Origin: a virus
IMG/VR virus record: IMGVR_UViG_3300045988_100671
Length of the DNA: 52,220 nt
Direction: 5' to 3' (one strand)
In this document: one piece after another, positions 822 through 52,220 of the stretch
Layout: each line of letters opens with the position of its first letter
How positions within the stretch are numbered: the stretch's first letter is position 1
Position numbers and translations under genes: made by a program
Notes under the pieces: model-generated
The model's database searches: none
What the model was told of the DNA's origin: nothing
What the model saw: the letters and a program-made list of their open reading frames with translations, nothing else

Positions 822-1274
822 GTGCCTATGGCAAATAGGCAGGGCGAGCTCACCATCATCACCAAAGCAAAAGACCTGGTAAATCATACCCTCAAGCTGA
901 CGAACAATGCGAACCTGTTTCCGAAAAAGGTGCGCTTCACGCTCTGCCAGCGTATGCAGAACATCACCCTTCAAATTCTCCATGACATCATAGCCGCGAA
1001 CGAAATCTACCCACAGACCGCGGCTGAATGGAAGCGGCGGCTCGACCTTCAAAGGGAGGTATTGACCGGCTGCAAGATGTTCCTGACGTTTCTGGACATA
1101 GCCCTTGAGCAGGGATATGTGGACATCCGGCGGTGTGAGTATTGGACGGGGCTCACCACCGACGTTAAGAACCTGGCAGCGTCGTGGAGAAAGAAGGACG
1201 TCGAGAGGTGCAAGCAGCAGACCCAGGGCGTCCAGAATGGACAGCCCAGGGGGCAGCAGCCCTACCGGCGATGA
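822..1274 (+). CDS. avd: DGR accessory variability determinant (Avd-like four-helix-bundle protein)
   Basis: RBS aaaggagg upstream of the ATG. A 150-aa helical basic protein immediately upstream of TR and RT, resembling the Avd / 23S-rRNA-IVS protein family. Confidence 0.8.
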   Translation: MPMANRQGELTIITKAKDLVNHTLKLTNNANLFPKKVRFTLCQRMQNITLQILHDIIAANEIYPQTAAEWKRRLDLQREVLTGCKMFLTFLDIALEQGYVDIRRCEYWTGLTTDVKNLAASWRKKDVERCKQQTQGVQNGQPRGQQPYRR

Positions 1275-1326
1275 TTCGAGCCCAGGGGTGCGCTTTGTAC
1301 GTGCATCCGCCCCGGTGTGCCTTGGT

Positions 1327-1432
1327 CGGTCCCCGAACTCGTCGAACGCGAACAACGTGCGCTACGTGAACTCGGACGGGAGCCTCAACAACAACAACGC
1401 GTACAACGGCAACAGGGGCGTGCGCCCGGCTT
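1327..1432 (+). repeat. DGR template repeat (TR)
   Basis: 106 bp align without gaps to 3301-3406, and the 3' 77 bp align to 23201-23277. Rich in AAC codons, about 27 adenines by my count. All mismatches to both VRs fall on TR adenines. Confidence 0.95.
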
Positions 1433-1598
1433 CGGTGGAAACTGCGATTGAGTAGCCTGTATGGGCGAAAACAGAAGCCTACCATCAAAGGAAGGTGCTT
1501 CCCGCCCCAGCCTGACAGGGCGGGGGCAAACACATAGCGTTGACGCCCGGCGGCTCGCACAGTGGAGCCACTTGGCTATCAGCAACGGAGGTCCCCTT

Positions 1599-2750
1599 TT
1601 GAAACCAAATCAATCTTTTGAATCCGTTTATGACTTCTCGAATCTGTATGCAGCGTATCGGGCCGCCCGAAAGGGAAAGCGATGGAAAAGTACCGTCGCA
1701 AAGGTGGAGGCCAATGCGCTGGAGGCTGTTGCATATCTCCAAAAAGAGCTCCGGGACGGAACCTACCGCCCCGGAGCTTACTATGAGTTTTTCGTCTATG
1801 AGCCGAAGAAAAGGCTCATCCAAACGAATAGCATCAAGGACAAGATCGTGCAGCACGCCTTCTGTGACCAGGTTCTGTACCCGGTCCTCTCCAGGCCCTT
1901 TATCCTGGACAACTATGGTTCCCAGGTTGGGAAGGGCACCCATTTCGGCCTTGACCGGCTCCGTGACTTCATGCGGGAGTATTACCGCCGCCATGGGAGC
2001 GCGGACGGATGGGTGCTAAAGGCCGACGTCCATCATTATTTCGCCAGCATCCGCCACGACATCCTCAAGCAGGACGTTGCCGAGCTGCTGACGGACCCGC
2101 GCTGTCTCGCGCTGTCCACCGCAATCATAGACAGCACGCCGGGTGGCGTCGGAATACCTATAGGAAACCAAAGCTCGCAAATCTATGCGCTGCTGTATCT
2201 CAACAAGTTAGACCACTTCGTCAAAGAAGTCCTGCGGATAAGGTATTACGGCCGGTACATGGACGATTTCTACCTCATCCACGAGGACAAGGCCGTTCTC
2301 AAGGAGGCCTGGGCCCGCATTGAGGAACACCTCTCAGCCAGAGGCCTCCAGCTCAACGGCAAAACCAACATCTTCCCGCTGCGGAACGGCCTGGACTTCC
2401 TGGGCTTTCATAGCTACCTTACCGACACAGGAAAGGTCATCAGGAAGGTCCGCCGTTCCAGCAGGGAGAGAATGAAGCGAAAGCTCCGCAAGTTCTCTGT
2501 CATGTATGCGGCCGGGGCCATCAGTAAGGAGGAGATCACGGCCAGCTACCAAAGCTGGAGGTCTCACGCTATGCACGGCCAGTGTAGGTCCTTGGTCGAA
2601 AAGTATGACAGGATCTTTGAGCAAATATTTACCCAAAGGAGTGATAAGCAAAATGTCGCAGAAAATCAGCGCTCTGCCGGTGGGGGCCAAGGTCAGAGAC
2701 ACGAAGACCAAATACTACGGCGTCCCCATCCCGTTCCAGATCGGCGATAA
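1599..2750 (+). CDS. DGR reverse transcriptase
   Basis: RT motifs include IGNQSSQ (DGR-RT hallmark), YGRYMDDF (YMDD) and LDFLGF. The best start is TTG 1599, with GGAGG at 1587-1591. The track ORF opens at ATG 1461 without an RBS. The 3' end overlaps the target gene by 98 nt. Confidence 0.93.
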   Translation: MKPNQSFESVYDFSNLYAAYRAARKGKRWKSTVAKVEANALEAVAYLQKELRDGTYRPGAYYEFFVYEPKKRLIQTNSIKDKIVQHAFCDQVLYPVLSRPFILDNYGSQVGKGTHFGLDRLRDFMREYYRRHGSADGWVLKADVHHYFASIRHDILKQDVAELLTDPRCLALSTAIIDSTPGGVGIPIGNQSSQIYALLYLNKLDHFVKEVLRIRYYGRYMDDFYLIHEDKAVLKEAWARIEEHLSARGLQLNGKTNIFPLRNGLDFLGFHSYLTDTGKVIRKVRRSSRERMKRKLRKFSVMYAAGAISKEEITASYQSWRSHAMHGQCRSLVEKYDRIFEQIFTQRSDKQNVAENQRSAGGGQGQRHEDQILRRPHPVPDRR

Positions 2751-4353
2751 GAACCACGCCGGGTACCCGAGCAACAGCACCACCCTTGTGGTTGAGAAGA
2801 TCATCAAGCTGTGCTGCTTCGATGCTACGGAGAGCGGCGGCAACAATGACCGACGGAACTACGGAAACAACCGCATGGTCCTGGCAAATATCCGCCAGTG
2901 GCTCAATAAGAGTGGAACCGGCTGGTATCAGGCGCAGCACAGCTACGACCGCCCGCCCTCCAACGCTTATGTCTGGAGTAACTACAATGAGTACGACGGC
3001 GAGGCGGGCTTCCTCACCGGCTTCGGCCCGGAGATGCTGGCAGCCCTGCTCACCACCACCCTGACCGTCGCAAAGCCTACCGTGGACGGCGGAGGCTCCG
3101 AGACCTTCCAGGACAAGGTATTCCTTCTGTCCATGGCGGAGGTCGGCCTCGGCTCCGAGAACGGCATCAGCGAGGGTTCCAAGCTGGCCCTGTTCAGTGA
3201 CAACAACAGCCGCAAGGCATACCCTACGACCCAGGCCGTCAGCAACAGCGAGTACACCAGCAGCTCGTTGAGTGCTTCGCAGCCGTGGTACTGGTGGCTT
3301 CGGTCCCCGGGCTCGTCGAACGCGTACTACGTGCGCTACGTGTACTCGGACGGGAGCCTCAACTACAACCGCGCGTACTACGGCAACAGGGGCGTGCGCC
3401 CGGCTTTGAATCTGTCCTCTGACATCTTGGTATCTGATTCTCCGGACAGCGAAGGCTACTACACGATCATCTGGAATAACAACCCCAACACCCCTCCGTC
3501 CATCACCGTTCCCGAGACGGTGCGGAGCGGGAAAAATCTGACCGTGACCTGGGCGGCGTCCGTTGACCCGGATGGCGACGCCGTGAGCTACGAGCTGGAG
3601 CGCCAGTACAACGGAGGCGGCTGGAGCAACGTGTATAGCGGGAGCGCTACCACCTTCACCGATACCGGAATCACCGGCAGCATGAACACCGTGGCCTACC
3701 GTGTGCGGGCCAAGGATAGCAAGGCAGCATACAGCGCCTACACCACGAGCCCGACCAGAACGGTTACGCACAATGTAGACCCGACGATCAGCGGCACCAA
3801 CCAGAACCTCGGCACGGTCACGAGCCCCCCGAGTTACCAGTATAGCGTCGGAGACAGTGACACCGGTGACACGCTGGAGATCGTGGAGAGCCTGGACGGC
3901 GTCGAGGTCCGCACCATCCAGAACGCGGTGCGCGGGCAGCCCTACACCTTCGCCCTCACGGCGGCGCAGTTCACCGCCCTCACCGGACAGCACACCATGT
4001 CCATCAAGGTCACGGACAGCGCTGGTAACAGCGCGACCCGGACGATCACGTTCACCCGCACTATCTCCCGGATTGACTTCGACTGGAAGATCGACGACAC
4101 CTCTGCTGCCGCCGAAAAAATCCTCGTCTCCATGCGGTACAACGCCCACGAGGACGGTGTGGTCCTCCAGGTGTGCAACAACTACAACGACGCTTCCCCC
4201 GCGTGGGAGACGGCGACGGTAGGTCTCAAGCATATGTTCTCCAACCAGAGCAAGACTGCGGATAGCTGGGCCGTCGGCGTTCGCGTCACCATCGAGAAGA
4301 CCAGCGGATGGGACGCCATTTCGTGCTACTCCCTGTCCGCCAGCTACATCTAA
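2653..4353 (+). CDS. DGR target protein 1: N-terminal lectin-like variable domain (VR1) followed by FN3/Ig-like domains; probable receptor-binding tail protein
   Basis: ATG 2653 with aaaggag upstream. Contains VR1 (aa about 216-252 of 566). The scaffold VFLLSMAEV...WYWWLRSP...GVRPAL is typical of DGR variable proteins. FN3-like PPSITVPETVRSGKNLTVTWAAS...YRVRAKD lies downstream. Confidence 0.85.
   Translation: MSQKISALPVGAKVRDTKTKYYGVPIPFQIGDKNHAGYPSNSTTLVVEKIIKLCCFDATESGGNNDRRNYGNNRMVLANIRQWLNKSGTGWYQAQHSYDRPPSNAYVWSNYNEYDGEAGFLTGFGPEMLAALLTTTLTVAKPTVDGGGSETFQDKVFLLSMAEVGLGSENGISEGSKLALFSDNNSRKAYPTTQAVSNSEYTSSSLSASQPWYWWLRSPGSSNAYYVRYVYSDGSLNYNRAYYGNRGVRPALNLSSDILVSDSPDSEGYYTIIWNNNPNTPPSITVPETVRSGKNLTVTWAASVDPDGDAVSYELERQYNGGGWSNVYSGSATTFTDTGITGSMNTVAYRVRAKDSKAAYSAYTTSPTRTVTHNVDPTISGTNQNLGTVTSPPSYQYSVGDSDTGDTLEIVESLDGVEVRTIQNAVRGQPYTFALTAAQFTALTGQHTMSIKVTDSAGNSATRTITFTRTISRIDFDWKIDDTSAAAEKILVSMRYNAHEDGVVLQVCNNYNDASPAWETATVGLKHMFSNQSKTADSWAVGVRVTIEKTSGWDAISCYSLSASYI
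3301..3406 (+). repeat. DGR variable repeat 1 (VR1)
   Basis: 9 mismatches to the TR over 106 bp, all at TR adenines. The 3' GC-rich stretch aggggcgtgcgcccggctt is identical (IMH-like). Homology ends at ctt|tga versus TR ctt|cgg. Confidence 0.95.
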
Positions 4354-20485: not shown

Positions 20486-21202
20486 TTGAACTACATCTTG
20501 GAGATAAATGCCTTTGAACGGCGGATGAAACGGCAGCCCCTCCCAACCACGGCGCAGCTCCTATGGTACAAGCTCATGGCCTTTGCAAATCGGCAACACT
20601 GGCCGGAGTGGTTCTCGATTGACAACGACCGGCTCGGCGGGCTTCTGAATAGCACCGCCGGAACGGCCAGAACCGCCAGAGACCAGCTTGTGAAAGAGGG
20701 ATATATCATCTGCCAAAGAGGAGCAAAAGGAAGGCCGAACAGGTACAAGCTGGTGTCCATCGCCTTCCAGGAGTACCCGGACGCCGCCGGAAGCAGCGAC
20801 GTGTACCCGGCCAATGATAGGCCAGGCATCGAAGGCTATCTGGAGGACGACTACACCAGGTACTTCGGCTACACGGAGGCGATCGGGAGCGAGGTCAAGA
20901 GCGTAACACAAGAGCTGCTTGATACGTTCCGGCCGGGAGAGAGGGCGACCCAGAGGGACGAACTCGAAGTGTTCCGCAAGATCACAGATCAGGAGGGAAC
21001 CGGGCCGGAAGACACGGTCATGACGGTATCGGAGGAGAAAAAGGCCCTCCTGGTCTATGCTTTTGAGCAGGCCAGCCTTGCAGGCGCGGTGAACTGGAGA
21101 TACATAAATGCCATATACCGCAACTTTGGGGCTCGAAATATCAAGACTGTGGATGACGCCTACGACTATGACTATGACAGGGATTACCGGATGGGCCGGT
21201 AA
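20486..21202 (+). CDS. Replication protein with DnaD-like domain (replisome organiser)
   Basis: TTG start after gggaggg. N-terminal winged-helix-like region. C-terminal AGAVNWRYINAIYRNFGARNIKTVDD resembles the DnaD/DnaB_2 domain. Confidence 0.65.
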   Translation: MNYILEINAFERRMKRQPLPTTAQLLWYKLMAFANRQHWPEWFSIDNDRLGGLLNSTAGTARTARDQLVKEGYIICQRGAKGRPNRYKLVSIAFQEYPDAAGSSDVYPANDRPGIEGYLEDDYTRYFGYTEAIGSEVKSVTQELLDTFRPGERATQRDELEVFRKITDQEGTGPEDTVMTVSEEKKALLVYAFEQASLAGAVNWRYINAIYRNFGARNIKTVDDAYDYDYDRDYRMGR

Positions 21203-21215
21203 AATCTTGCCCGCT

Positions 21216-21228
21216 GTGGCATTAAAAC
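21216..21228 (+). repeat. gtggcattaaaac motif, copy 2
   Basis: Exact 13-mer shared with 9624-9636. Intergenic. Confidence 0.6.
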
Positions 21229-21242
21229 GAGAGGTGGTACCC

Positions 21243-21839
21243 ATGAAAGAGAAACTGGTGGTGGCCGTGTGTCTGACCCTCTGCGCGGTCCTGTTTGCAA
21301 GCGTGACCGTCGGAGGGCTTCGGCTCGGCGCCGAGGCGGATGAGGAATCCGCCCCTGGGGACCTGGTTCAGATCGAGATTGGGGAAGGCTCCGTTTTGCT
21401 TCCCACCCTGGATGACGGGGCATCGGATGAGCTGGAGATCCCATGGACATATCAGGAGATCGAGATGCTGGCGAAGACGATCTGGGCAGAGGCCCGGGGC
21501 GTCAAGAGCACAGCACAGCAAGCGGCCGTCGTCTGGTGCGTCCTCAATCGGGTGGACGCCGGTGGATATGGCGAGACTATCGCGGAAGTTGTAAGCGCCC
21601 CTTACCAGTTCGCCTATGACCCGGCATCCCCGGTGACGGGAGAGTTCCTGATACTGGCAGAGGACGTTCTTCTGCGCTGGGGAGCTGAAAAGGCTGGCGA
21701 GGAAGATGTGGGCCGCACGCTGCCGGCCGATTATCTGTTCTTCGAGGGAGATGGAGCGGAGAATCACTTCCGCAAGGAGTACGAGAAGACCGGGGAAACG
21801 TGGGACTGGAGCTTGCCGGACCCCTACGAAGGAGGATGA
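21243..21839 (+). CDS. SleB-like cell wall hydrolase with N-terminal signal anchor
   Basis: ATG 21243. TM helix LVVAVCLTLCAVLFASV. IEMLAKTIWAEARGV...VVWCVLNRV...YQF is typical of the Hydrolase_2/SleB family. Confidence 0.75.
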   Translation: MKEKLVVAVCLTLCAVLFASVTVGGLRLGAEADEESAPGDLVQIEIGEGSVLLPTLDDGASDELEIPWTYQEIEMLAKTIWAEARGVKSTAQQAAVVWCVLNRVDAGGYGETIAEVVSAPYQFAYDPASPVTGEFLILAEDVLLRWGAEKAGEEDVGRTLPADYLFFEGDGAENHFRKEYEKTGETWDWSLPDPYEGG

Positions 21840-22741: not shown

Positions 22742-22757
22742 ACAGGAGGAAACCAAT

Positions 22758-23639
22758 ATGGAAGTCAAACTGAACGCGCTGCGCCGTGGCGACACCTTCG
22801 CCCTGGCCGGTATCAACTGGAAGGTGCTCAAGGAGCTTGAGCCCGCCCACTCTGGAGCCGCGCAGAACTATTTCTGCGAGGCTGCGGAAGACATCTTCCA
22901 GGCACCCTTCGACGAGAACGGCAACAACAACTGGAATAACGCCAGCCTGCGGGAGCGGCTGAACGGTGACTTCCTGGACGCCCTGGAGAAGGAACACCCC
23001 GGCATCCTGGAGTTCATCGTCCCCACCTACCGCGATCTGACCGCCGATGATGGCCTCAACGACTACGGGGCTTGCCTCGATAAGGTGACCATGCTGACGG
23101 CGGATGAATACCGGGAGACCAGGGACCTTCACCCCGCGCCGGAACACTGGCGCTGGCTCATTACCCCCGATGGTACGCCCGCCAGCTCCGGCACCTCTTT
23201 CGTGCGCTACGTGTACTCGGACGGGAGCCTCGACAGCGACTACGCGTACGACGGCCGCAGGGGCGTGCGCCCGGCTTTGACCCTGAAATCTGACATCTTG
23301 GTATCTGTCGATGACCAGGAAGACCAGACGGAGGAGCCGGAGGAGATGACCCCGGAGCAGCGCGAGATGGCGCTCTATGAGAAGGCTGTCGCCAAGTGGG
23401 GCAAGAGAGCCCAGGCCCTCAAGGCCATCGAGGAGATGAGCGAGCTGTCCCAGGCCATCTTGAAGCTGGTGTTCTGCGAGGACTACGGTATCGGGGATGA
23501 ACAGGCCATCCGCGACAACATCTCCATGGAGCGGGCCGACGTTGAGATCATGCTCAACCAGCTCCACGTCATCTTCGGGGACAACAGCGAGATGGAGTGC
23601 AAGAGACTGGACAACCTGGAAAGCCTTCTGGAGGGATAA
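22758..23639 (+). CDS. DGR target protein 2: lectin-like variable domain (VR2) fused to a MazG-like all-alpha NTP pyrophosphohydrolase domain
   Basis: ATG 22758 after aggagga. Contains VR2 (aa about 147-174 of 293). C-terminal EEMSE-28 aa-ERAD fits the MazG EXXE...EXXD metal-binding pattern. Confidence 0.8.
   Translation: MEVKLNALRRGDTFALAGINWKVLKELEPAHSGAAQNYFCEAAEDIFQAPFDENGNNNWNNASLRERLNGDFLDALEKEHPGILEFIVPTYRDLTADDGLNDYGACLDKVTMLTADEYRETRDLHPAPEHWRWLITPDGTPASSGTSFVRYVYSDGSLDSDYAYDGRRGVRPALTLKSDILVSVDDQEDQTEEPEEMTPEQREMALYEKAVAKWGKRAQALKAIEEMSELSQAILKLVFCEDYGIGDEQAIRDNISMERADVEIMLNQLHVIFGDNSEMECKRLDNLESLLEG
23201..23277 (+). repeat. DGR variable repeat 2 (VR2)
   Basis: 77 bp align to TR 1356-1432 with 8 mismatches, all at TR adenines. 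Counting two further A-to-T positions at 23199-23200 gives 79 bp and 10 mismatches. Same IMH-like 3' end as VR1. Confidence 0.92.
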
Positions 23640-52040: not shown

Positions 52041-52220
52041 ATGCCCAATGATTTTGAGCTCGACCCTATCCTGGAGACGGAGCCCGACAACGACGGCGCT
52101 GTCCCCCTTACCAGCGGGTATGAAGTGCTGGGCCGCATTTTGGCACAGCATGGCCCCGTGAAGTACACCAAGGCCCTTCTTGATAGCGGAGACATCCCGG
52201 AGGGCACCGTCATCGACAAC
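52041..52220 (+). CDS. Tail fibre protein, N-terminal part (continues at 56-607 after collapsing the overlap)
   Basis: RBS aaggagg 7 nt upstream of ATG 52041. Frame is continuous with ORF 89-607. Confidence 0.75.
   Translation, partial: MPNDFELDPILETEPDNDGAVPLTSGYEVLGRILAQHGPVKYTKALLDSGDIPEGTVIDN
52166..52220. repeat. Terminal overlap, identical to 1-55
   Basis: Same 55-mer as window start. Confidence 0.95.

Follow-up and report, generated by a model that had tools for sequence, protein, structure and literature searches.

The diversity-generating retroelements (DGRs) of phages are seen almost entirely as receptor-specificity switches of tail or surface proteins. In phages nd4 and nd12, one DGR serves a large tentaclin or 'Hoc-like' target encoded beside the reverse transcriptase (RT), together with a remote, small DUF6273 protein (PMC10743442). 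The same two-target layout, with a 'small DGR target', has been reported for Lelie and CP11 (PMC11792537), and across 173 Toutatisvirus genomes the small target belongs to the core genes and lies 17.5 kb from the template repeat (TR) (bioRxiv 10.1101/2024.10.15.618418). Distal second variable repeats (VRs) near counter-defence genes were described in four gut prophage species in a 2025 study (PMC12629997). The papers on two-target DGRs suggest that the small proteins bind receptors or have some generic part in an arms race, and do not mention a MazG domain; MazG is also unmentioned in the global DGR survey, and no published report of virion proteomics or expression timing was found for the small DUF6273 targets. 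In this work, such a second target was analyzed in a viral DNA of 52,220 nucleotides (nt) (IMG/VR record IMGVR_UViG_3300045988_100671), the whole of which is called the window. The gene, target 2 (Table 1), encodes a fusion of an N-terminal DUF6273 domain, which ends in the second VR (VR2), with a linker and a C-terminal domain of predicted MazG-like nucleoside triphosphate (NTP) pyrophosphohydrolase fold. Target 2 has in common with nd4_tgt2, nd12_tgt2, Toutatis gp24 and the Lelie and CP11 proteins the lectin-like DUF6273 domain, which the VR closes off C-terminally, and also the DGR acting in trans, with the cassette beside the large tentaclin or 'Hoc-like' target and the small gene far off among early or replication genes. 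In contrast to the small targets of these Oscillospiraceae and Faecalibacterium phages, only the target 2 family has a catalytic MazG-like domain; the nd4 protein carries the linker and the first helix, the nd12 protein an N-terminal DUF3310, and the Toutatis protein neither. An earlier annotation of this DNA (the original prediction) had taken the architecture to be uncharacterized. This still applies to the MazG fusion itself, which appears to be undescribed, as no description of a DGR-plus-MazG fusion was found among the papers listed by a full-text literature search, some of them judged by title and term counts. It does not apply to remote small DUF6273 targets in non-structural regions, which are already published (Toutatisvirus, Lelie, CP11, nd4, nd12; Nature 2025).

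The repeat family D1 has three copies in the window (1326-1432, 3300-3406, and 23171-23277), of which the copy at 1326-1432 is the TR because it is flanked by the genes for the accessory protein Avd and for the RT. The VR of the first target (VR1 of target 1) uses all 107 nt of the TR, while VR2 uses only its 3' 79 nt (1354-1432 of the TR aligned with 23199-23277), so the two targets take different lengths of the same complementary DNA. All 10 mismatches between the TR and VR2 fall at TR adenines, which account for 21 of the 79 nt (hypergeometric P = 2.4e-7), and every one of these adenines is at codon position 1 or 2 in target 2. There are 13 TR-adenine codons, that is, variable codons, in VR2 (148, 151, 153, 155, 157, 159-162, 164, 165, 167, and 168), and aa 149-174 of the protein read VRYVYSDGSLDSDYAYDGRRGVRPAL. 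With regard to a 3' IMH element, VR1 and VR2 have the same GC-rich 3' end, GGGGCGTGCGCCCGGCTTTGA, and the TR there reads ...GGCTTCGG. Downstream of the two VRs, no inverted repeat of at least 7 nt, as in a DGR hairpin or cruciform, was detected. A single DGR serves both targets, and target 2 is the second, remote one. The original prediction of a DGR-diversified domain ending in VR2, within an open reading frame (ORF) at 22758-23639, was thus borne out, with exact coordinates and with all of its quoted peptides present. Its further claim that the N-terminal 175 aa share the scaffold of target 1 stands at the family level, since both targets match DUF6273 and phrog_9958; by BLASTP, however, the similarity between them is limited to aa 127-183, with 58% identity.

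The variation of VR2 was also followed in natural populations. Searching target 2 against 5.8 billion clustered proteins gave 282 relatives, more than 100 of them full-length at 55-98% identity, and two 90%-identity clusters contained 1,104 and 7,330 distinct member sequences. When 15 members from each of these two clusters were aligned, they differed almost exclusively at the TR-adenine codons, where nearly every member was unique, and the remainder of the sequence was nearly fixed. Among 111 full-length homologues, column entropy was highest at the variable codons of VR2. Because near-identical copies differ almost only at TR-adenine codons, diversification is ongoing, and target 2 is an active DGR target. 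RT and Avd make errors at adenines when the TR is copied and thereby rewrite 13 codons at the tip of the lectin-like DUF6273 domain, so that nearly every genome in a population has a different binding surface. That the gene is an artefact, i.e., an assembly chimera, a mis-called ORF, or a chance or decayed VR2, has a negligible probability. Chimeric proteins mediated by VRs do exist in the databases (P0092 and P0140); nevertheless, hundreds of independent assemblies contain the fusion ORF, including isolate genomes such as Pseudoflavonifractor sp. Marseille-P3106 and IMG/VR contigs, which refutes an artefact, as do the codons randomized in natural populations. A proper start codon and ribosome-binding site (AGGAGG, 8 nt upstream of the ATG) also weigh against it. 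As for the two chimeric proteins, P0092 (488 aa) consists of the N-domain of target 2 and the immunoglobulin (Ig)-like tail of target 1, and P0140 (377 aa) of a tentaclin-type N-domain and a MazG-like tail, both joined exactly at the VR. They look like reciprocal chimeras that arose either by recombination between VR1 and VR2 or by misassembly across the shared repeat of ~80-100 nt.

The full-length AlphaFold2 model of target 2 (predicted local distance difference test, pLDDT, 83) consists of a globular domain, a linker, and a helical bundle, and has no other parts. For the N-domain, the model matched DUF6273 proteins in BFVD and, in the PDB, the N-terminal DUF6273 domain of the immunoglobulin A (IgA) peptidase from Thomasclavelia ramosa (PMC12402451). 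According to a published description, DUF6273 has a C-type-lectin-like fold in which the VR forms a surface hairpin (PMC10743442). VR2 ends the DUF6273 domain of target 2, and the lectin fold is taken from that paper, no canonical lectin structure being among the direct structural matches. The acidic linker, VDDQEDQTEEPEEM, was found after the variable domain, where it had been expected, and is disordered in the model. Its length and charge differ between homologues. The full-length model, with a predicted template modeling score (pTM) of 0.58, suggests that the two domains are independent.

The C-terminal domain contains the segments KAIEEMSELSQAILK (aa 222-236) and ERADVEIMLNQL (aa 258-269), which carry the two halves of the acidic motif. 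It had been proposed that EXXE, 28 residues and EXXD follow each other here in an all-helical context; exactly 28 residues lie between E229 and E258, and the model has four helices with high confidence. ExxD is the Mg2+-binding signature of the MazG family (PMC4491611). In the superfamily, the acidic motif takes the form EExxE(x12-28)ExxD. Within the fusion family, E225, E229, E258, D261, and K236 are invariant and E226 and E263 nearly so. The core residues E226, E229, E258, and D261, for which conservation among homologues had been anticipated, are intact in 157 of 162 collected fusions (97%) and in 130 of 141 collected non-fusion relatives. A phmmer search against 1.84 billion representatives gave 1,364 relatives of the domain, mostly standalone proteins of 90-130 aa, and 78 standalone relatives were used to build both the domain model and a standalone profile. 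With the domain model, the top ~48 Foldseek matches in the PDB were all MazG-type all-alpha NTP pyrophosphohydrolases (DCTPP1, RS21-C6, iMazG, DR2231, Bacillus MazG, AF1178, and E. coli MazG among them), with probabilities of 0.85-0.99 and template modeling (TM) scores of 0.45-0.58, although the E-values were weak, all at least 0.13. Standalone viral 'NTP pyrophosphohydrolases' matched the full-length model with TM scores of 0.70-0.77. In PHROG, the domain was matched by the uncurated family phrog_2245 'nucleoside triphosphate pyrophosphohydrolase' (E 1.7e-16). The standalone profile gave weak PDB matches to 5ie9, 2q73/2q5z, and 4qgp, in which EExxEL and EExxDV align with the family motifs, those of Bacillus MazG and iMazG. 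The top match of that profile search, outranking the MazG structures, was the N-terminal helical region of 3zta, a STAS-domain anti-sigma-factor antagonist (E 5.5e-4). On the other hand, the C-terminal 102 aa had no match in Pfam or NCBIfam even at E-values up to 10 and no MazG match in a single-sequence search of the PDB; PF03819 was reached by 4 of the 78 standalone relatives at E <=0.01 and by one longer relative at 4.2e-8. The domain is assigned to the MazG superfamily because of its fold and motif, its PHROG family, and these transitive links, and as modeled it is a divergent MazG subfamily outside the curated Pfam and NCBIfam models (PF03819, PF12643). The MazG-like identity originally predicted therefore stands by fold, motif, and phrog_2245, and not by any curated model. 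Compared with the standalone phage MazG-like enzymes of phrog_2245, the domain has in common the four-helix fold, EExxE...ExxD, the conserved Lys, and the location of its gene in an early region. The standalone enzymes are untethered, whereas the target 2 domain is tethered to a hypervariable domain and falls below the curated Pfam and NCBIfam thresholds.

A search for homologous fusions in gut phage catalogues had been suggested, and such fusions were found both in IMG/VR and in gut prophages. Among the best 80 IMG/VR loci, each examined over 10 kb on either side of the gene, there were at least 23 full-length fusions, with identities from 96% down to 28%. The most distant one (L057) has 28% identity, a locus guanine-cytosine (GC) content of 39%, and a basic linker, and it retains AIEEMSEL...K and EEMADV. 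The full fusion is also carried by prophages of Pseudoflavonifractor sp. Marseille-P3106 and of a Flavonifractor metagenome-assembled genome, which fits the GC content of the window (60.6%). A megablast of the window from 20 to 27 kb against GenBank phages gave no match, and tblastn against the GenBank phage collection gave no record with the full fusion. The fusion persists over 28-96% identity and over different host GC contents, which speaks for a functional linkage of its domains. This bears on the possibility that target 2 has two independent functions, an early house-cleaning or deoxynucleoside triphosphate (dNTP)-pool pyrophosphohydrolase having merely been fused to a small DGR target that neither directs nor regulates it. 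The small size of most of the 1,364 relatives agrees with it, as do the variable linker and the apparent independence of the domains in the model. The closest standalone relatives of the C-terminal domain are 56-65% identical, and those at 56-57%, which share the start TPEQREMALYE, are found as early genes of prophages in Muriventricola, Gemmiger, and Neglectibacter. Moreover, the MazG-like subfamily fuses promiscuously: among 45 longer relatives, the N-terminal partner was DUF6273 in eight, Lar in two, and a Tad2-like domain, DUF1599, and a DNA-methylase fragment in one each. We nevertheless consider such independence unlikely, because a neutral join would not be expected to be kept over so deep a divergence and such a range of host GC, and because no split arrangement, with a variable-domain gene beside a MazG gene, was found in the loci examined for it (L007, L008, and L043). 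A further single fusion partner of the subfamily is N4 gp49/Sf6 gp66.

The target 2 gene lies in the non-structural replication module and not in the tail module, and this position is conserved in relatives. It is ~20 kb away from the DGR cassette, inside a same-strand replication and recombination block that includes a primase, a fused SbcD-SbcC, a DnaD-like loader, a SleB-like hydrolase, DUF5131, and a RecU-type resolvase; the earlier placement among replication and early genes was correct. The gene order is the same around a copy with 66% identity, which belongs to a prophage on a bacterial contig of 224 kb, and the small targets of Toutatis and nd4 likewise lie in early or replication regions. 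We hypothesize, with a probability of roughly 40%, that target 2 acts in the cytoplasm, where a retargetable binding module, linked to an oligomeric nucleotide hydrolase, would gate or localize hydrolysis against a polymorphic intracellular partner. During infection, the protein would be produced in the host cytoplasm, where its MazG-like domain would dimerize or tetramerize, as in single-domain MazG enzymes. Oligomerization would then not only form the active site but also present the variable domain in two to four copies. This domain may bind a polymorphic partner inside the cell, such as a macromolecule of the host, of a defense system, or of a rival element, and this binding would localize or gate nucleotide hydrolysis. 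A phage whose VR2 variant matches the current host would replicate better, and selection would act on VR2 directly, as every infecting genome would express the VR2 allele that it carries. A related logic is known from bacteria, in which DGR-varied lectin domains are joined to intracellular effector or signaling domains (PMC7159879, PMC7517822). Target 2 shares with these variable proteins the combination of a diversified lectin-fold module with a cytoplasmic enzymatic or effector domain. The bacterial proteins are cellular, often STAND NTPases, kinases, or peptidases, and their variable domain is usually C-terminal, whereas target 2 is phage-encoded and small, with an N-terminal variable domain and a nucleotide pyrophosphohydrolase as the partner. 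The hypervariable lectin domain might recruit the pyrophosphohydrolase to proteins of host defense or of rival elements, which would make target 2 an intracellular, reprogrammable, phage-side adaptive counter-defense; we put this forward tentatively and regard it as unlikely. The partner domains of the MazG-like subfamily (Lar restriction alleviation and Tad2-like Thoeris anti-defense among them) hint at an early neighborhood of the counter-defense type.

Several observations weigh against a cytoplasmic, enzyme-coupled role. The Lar and Tad2-like associations amount to one or two proteins out of 45, the E-values of the Foldseek matches are weak, and curated domain models do not recognize the C-terminal domain. 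For the small DUF6273 targets, receptor binding is the favored role (PMC10743442; bioRxiv 10.1101/2024.10.15.618418). The position of the gene alone does not exclude virion incorporation or action after lysis. Furthermore, the two domains can come apart. The nd4 target2 (L001 5995-6696; OR777945.1 30965-31669) is orthologous to the target 2 family as far as the first helix, linker included (hhalign probability 100%, E 3.6e-41, aa 4-217), and lacks the catalytic helices. In P0143 (296 aa), a fusion with 52% identity, the acidic motifs are degraded (EKMRAL/TARADA vs EEMSEL/EERADV), while the fold and the fusion are retained, so it is probably a catalytically dead variant. P0035-37 (226 aa), which comprise 30 member sequences, share 94-95% identity with target 2 as far as aa 198; a frameshift in the linker then reduces them to the N-domain. 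These could be sequencing indels or genuine truncated alleles. Toutatis gp24 has neither a MazG domain nor a MazG-like neighbor. Since nd4 lacks the catalytic helices and P0143 the acidic residues, coupling of the domains is not obligatory, and to judge from these sequences (nd4, P0143, P0035-37, and Toutatis) the variable domain can evidently work without the enzyme. The first MazG-like helix retained in nd4 target2 reads TPEH...FGG, and the 'short alpha-helix region' reported for this protein looks like a vestige of the MazG-like domain. Two other candidate remnants were rejected: Toutatis gp25, encoded next to the small target gp24, as a split-off MazG (hhalign probability 1.3%), and the extra helical motif of nd12 target2, which is the N-terminal DUF3310.

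In the main rival explanation, the MazG-like domain is mainly a scaffold. By dimerizing or tetramerizing, it would multimerize a variable lectin adhesin that acts outside the cytoplasm, on the virion or after release by lysis, and that binds ligands on host cells or gut surfaces; catalysis by the MazG-like domain would be incidental or vestigial. We take this rival seriously, although we consider it doubtful. Mtd of Bordetella phage BPP-1 offers a parallel, as it is also a lectin-fold DGR target with the VR at the domain end and is trimeric, and single-domain MazG enzymes such as DCTPP1 have been modeled as dimers and tetramers (PMC4491611). The varied or missing helical add-ons of small DUF6273 targets elsewhere (DUF3310 in nd12, the short helical tail in nd4, none in Toutatis), the loss of catalytic residues in P0143, the published receptor-binding interpretation, and the diversification of a tentaclin-type surface protein by the same TR all agree with a scaffold. 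However, a pure scaffold would not need to retain catalytic residues, and these are kept in the great majority of fusions, no more rarely than in the standalone enzymes and even at 28% identity. In addition, Mtd is the tip of a tail fiber with a beta-prism and a beta-sandwich, and its gene lies beside the cassette in the structural region, none of which applies to target 2. No obvious N-terminal signal peptide was seen in target 2, and no beta-prism, beta-sandwich, Ig-like, or other virion-attachment domain in its model, so that an anchor is missing. Moreover, across three unrelated phage groups the small-target gene sits in the replication module.

If the cytoplasmic reading is preferred, the substrate may be considered. 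The original prediction had raised an intracellular recruitment of nucleotide or alarmone hydrolysis to variable host or defense components. The single assayed phage MazG found in the literature prefers dGTP and dCTP and does not hydrolyze (p)ppGpp (PMC6850273), and the alarmone idea is therefore without specific support. It could also be imagined that target 2 is a sensor or sponge for small molecules, with a variable pocket that binds nucleotide immune signals or modified nucleotides and a MazG-like domain that degrades them. One MazG-like relative is fused to a Tad2-like domain (a Thoeris anti-defense sponge) and one to DUF1599, which is associated with nucleotide modification. However, the Tad2-like support is a single example, and the DUF6273 domain shows no sign of a nucleotide pocket. 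Moreover, to our knowledge, the characterized lectin-fold variable proteins of DGRs (Mtd and TvpA) bind macromolecular surfaces. A sensor or sponge is thus very improbable.

The puzzling second small DUF6273 target of the literature is here covalently joined to a predicted enzyme domain whose relatives act on cytoplasmic nucleotides, and the fusion gives the question of the purpose of such targets a concrete biochemical handle. If the cytoplasmic reading is true, it would mean that targeted hypermutation extends from adsorption to intracellular phage-host conflict, and target 2 would provide a compact natural scaffold linking a programmable binder to an enzyme. If counter-defense is also true, this would be the first enzymatic, non-adsorption viral use of DGR hypervariation.

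Table 1. Coordinates of target 2, its parts, the DGR cassette, and neighboring genes in the window
Feature	Position	Strand	Evidence or description
Target 2 gene, 293-aa DUF6273-linker-MazG-like fusion	22758-23639	+	ORF, translation; >100 full-length homologues
Ribosome-binding site AGGAGG of target 2	22744-22749	+	Direct sequence reading
N-terminal DUF6273 domain, aa 1-183	22758-23306	+	Pfam PF19789, E 2.7e-10; phrog_9958, E 2.6e-67
VR2, codons 148-174	23199-23277	+	10/10 mismatches at TR adenines
Acidic disordered linker, aa 184-198	23307-23351	+	pLDDT <50 over aa 187-194
C-terminal MazG-like all-alpha NTP pyrophosphohydrolase-fold domain (predicted), aa 199-293	23352-23636	+	Four helices, model pLDDT 97.6
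EExxE half of metal-binding motif, E225-E226-M-S-E229	23430-23444	+	Invariant or near-invariant in fusions and standalone relatives
ExxD half of metal-binding motif, E258-R-A-D261	23529-23540	+	Invariant in fusion family
Avd accessory protein of DGR	822-1274	+	phrog_3206 'Avd protein of DGR', E 8.4e-34
TR	1326-1432	+	Three-copy repeat family; every mismatch to both VRs at TR adenines
DGR RT	1461-2750	+	phrog_1423 reverse transcriptase, E 3.2e-131
Target 1, DUF6273 + Ig-like ('Hoc-like'/tentaclin-type), 567 aa	2653-4353	+	phrog_10993, E 5.5e-231; start codon checked
VR1, in target 1	3300-3406	+	9/9 mismatches at TR adenines
Fused SbcCD, 1,300 aa	16535-20437		SbcD-like metallophosphoesterase and SbcC-like SMC/AAA region in a single ORF
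DnaD-like ORF	20486-21202		
SleB-like cell-wall hydrolase ORF	21108-21839		phrog_30550; weak endolysin matches

The window carries an exact direct repeat of 55 nt at its termini (1-55 = 52166-52220). It is therefore a circularly closed assembly with a genome of ~52,165 bp, and it represents a complete, circularly permuted phage genome of ~52.2 kb. A scan for promoters and terminators around the target 2 gene gave no convincing signal. Among the neighboring genes, the fused SbcCD arrangement is also present in a related prophage (L004), where the protein has 1,260 aa. The SleB-like ORF begins with a hydrophobic N-terminal segment and overlaps the 3' end of the DnaD-like ORF, and it sits in the replication block, apart from the lysis genes near 5.2-7.3 kb.

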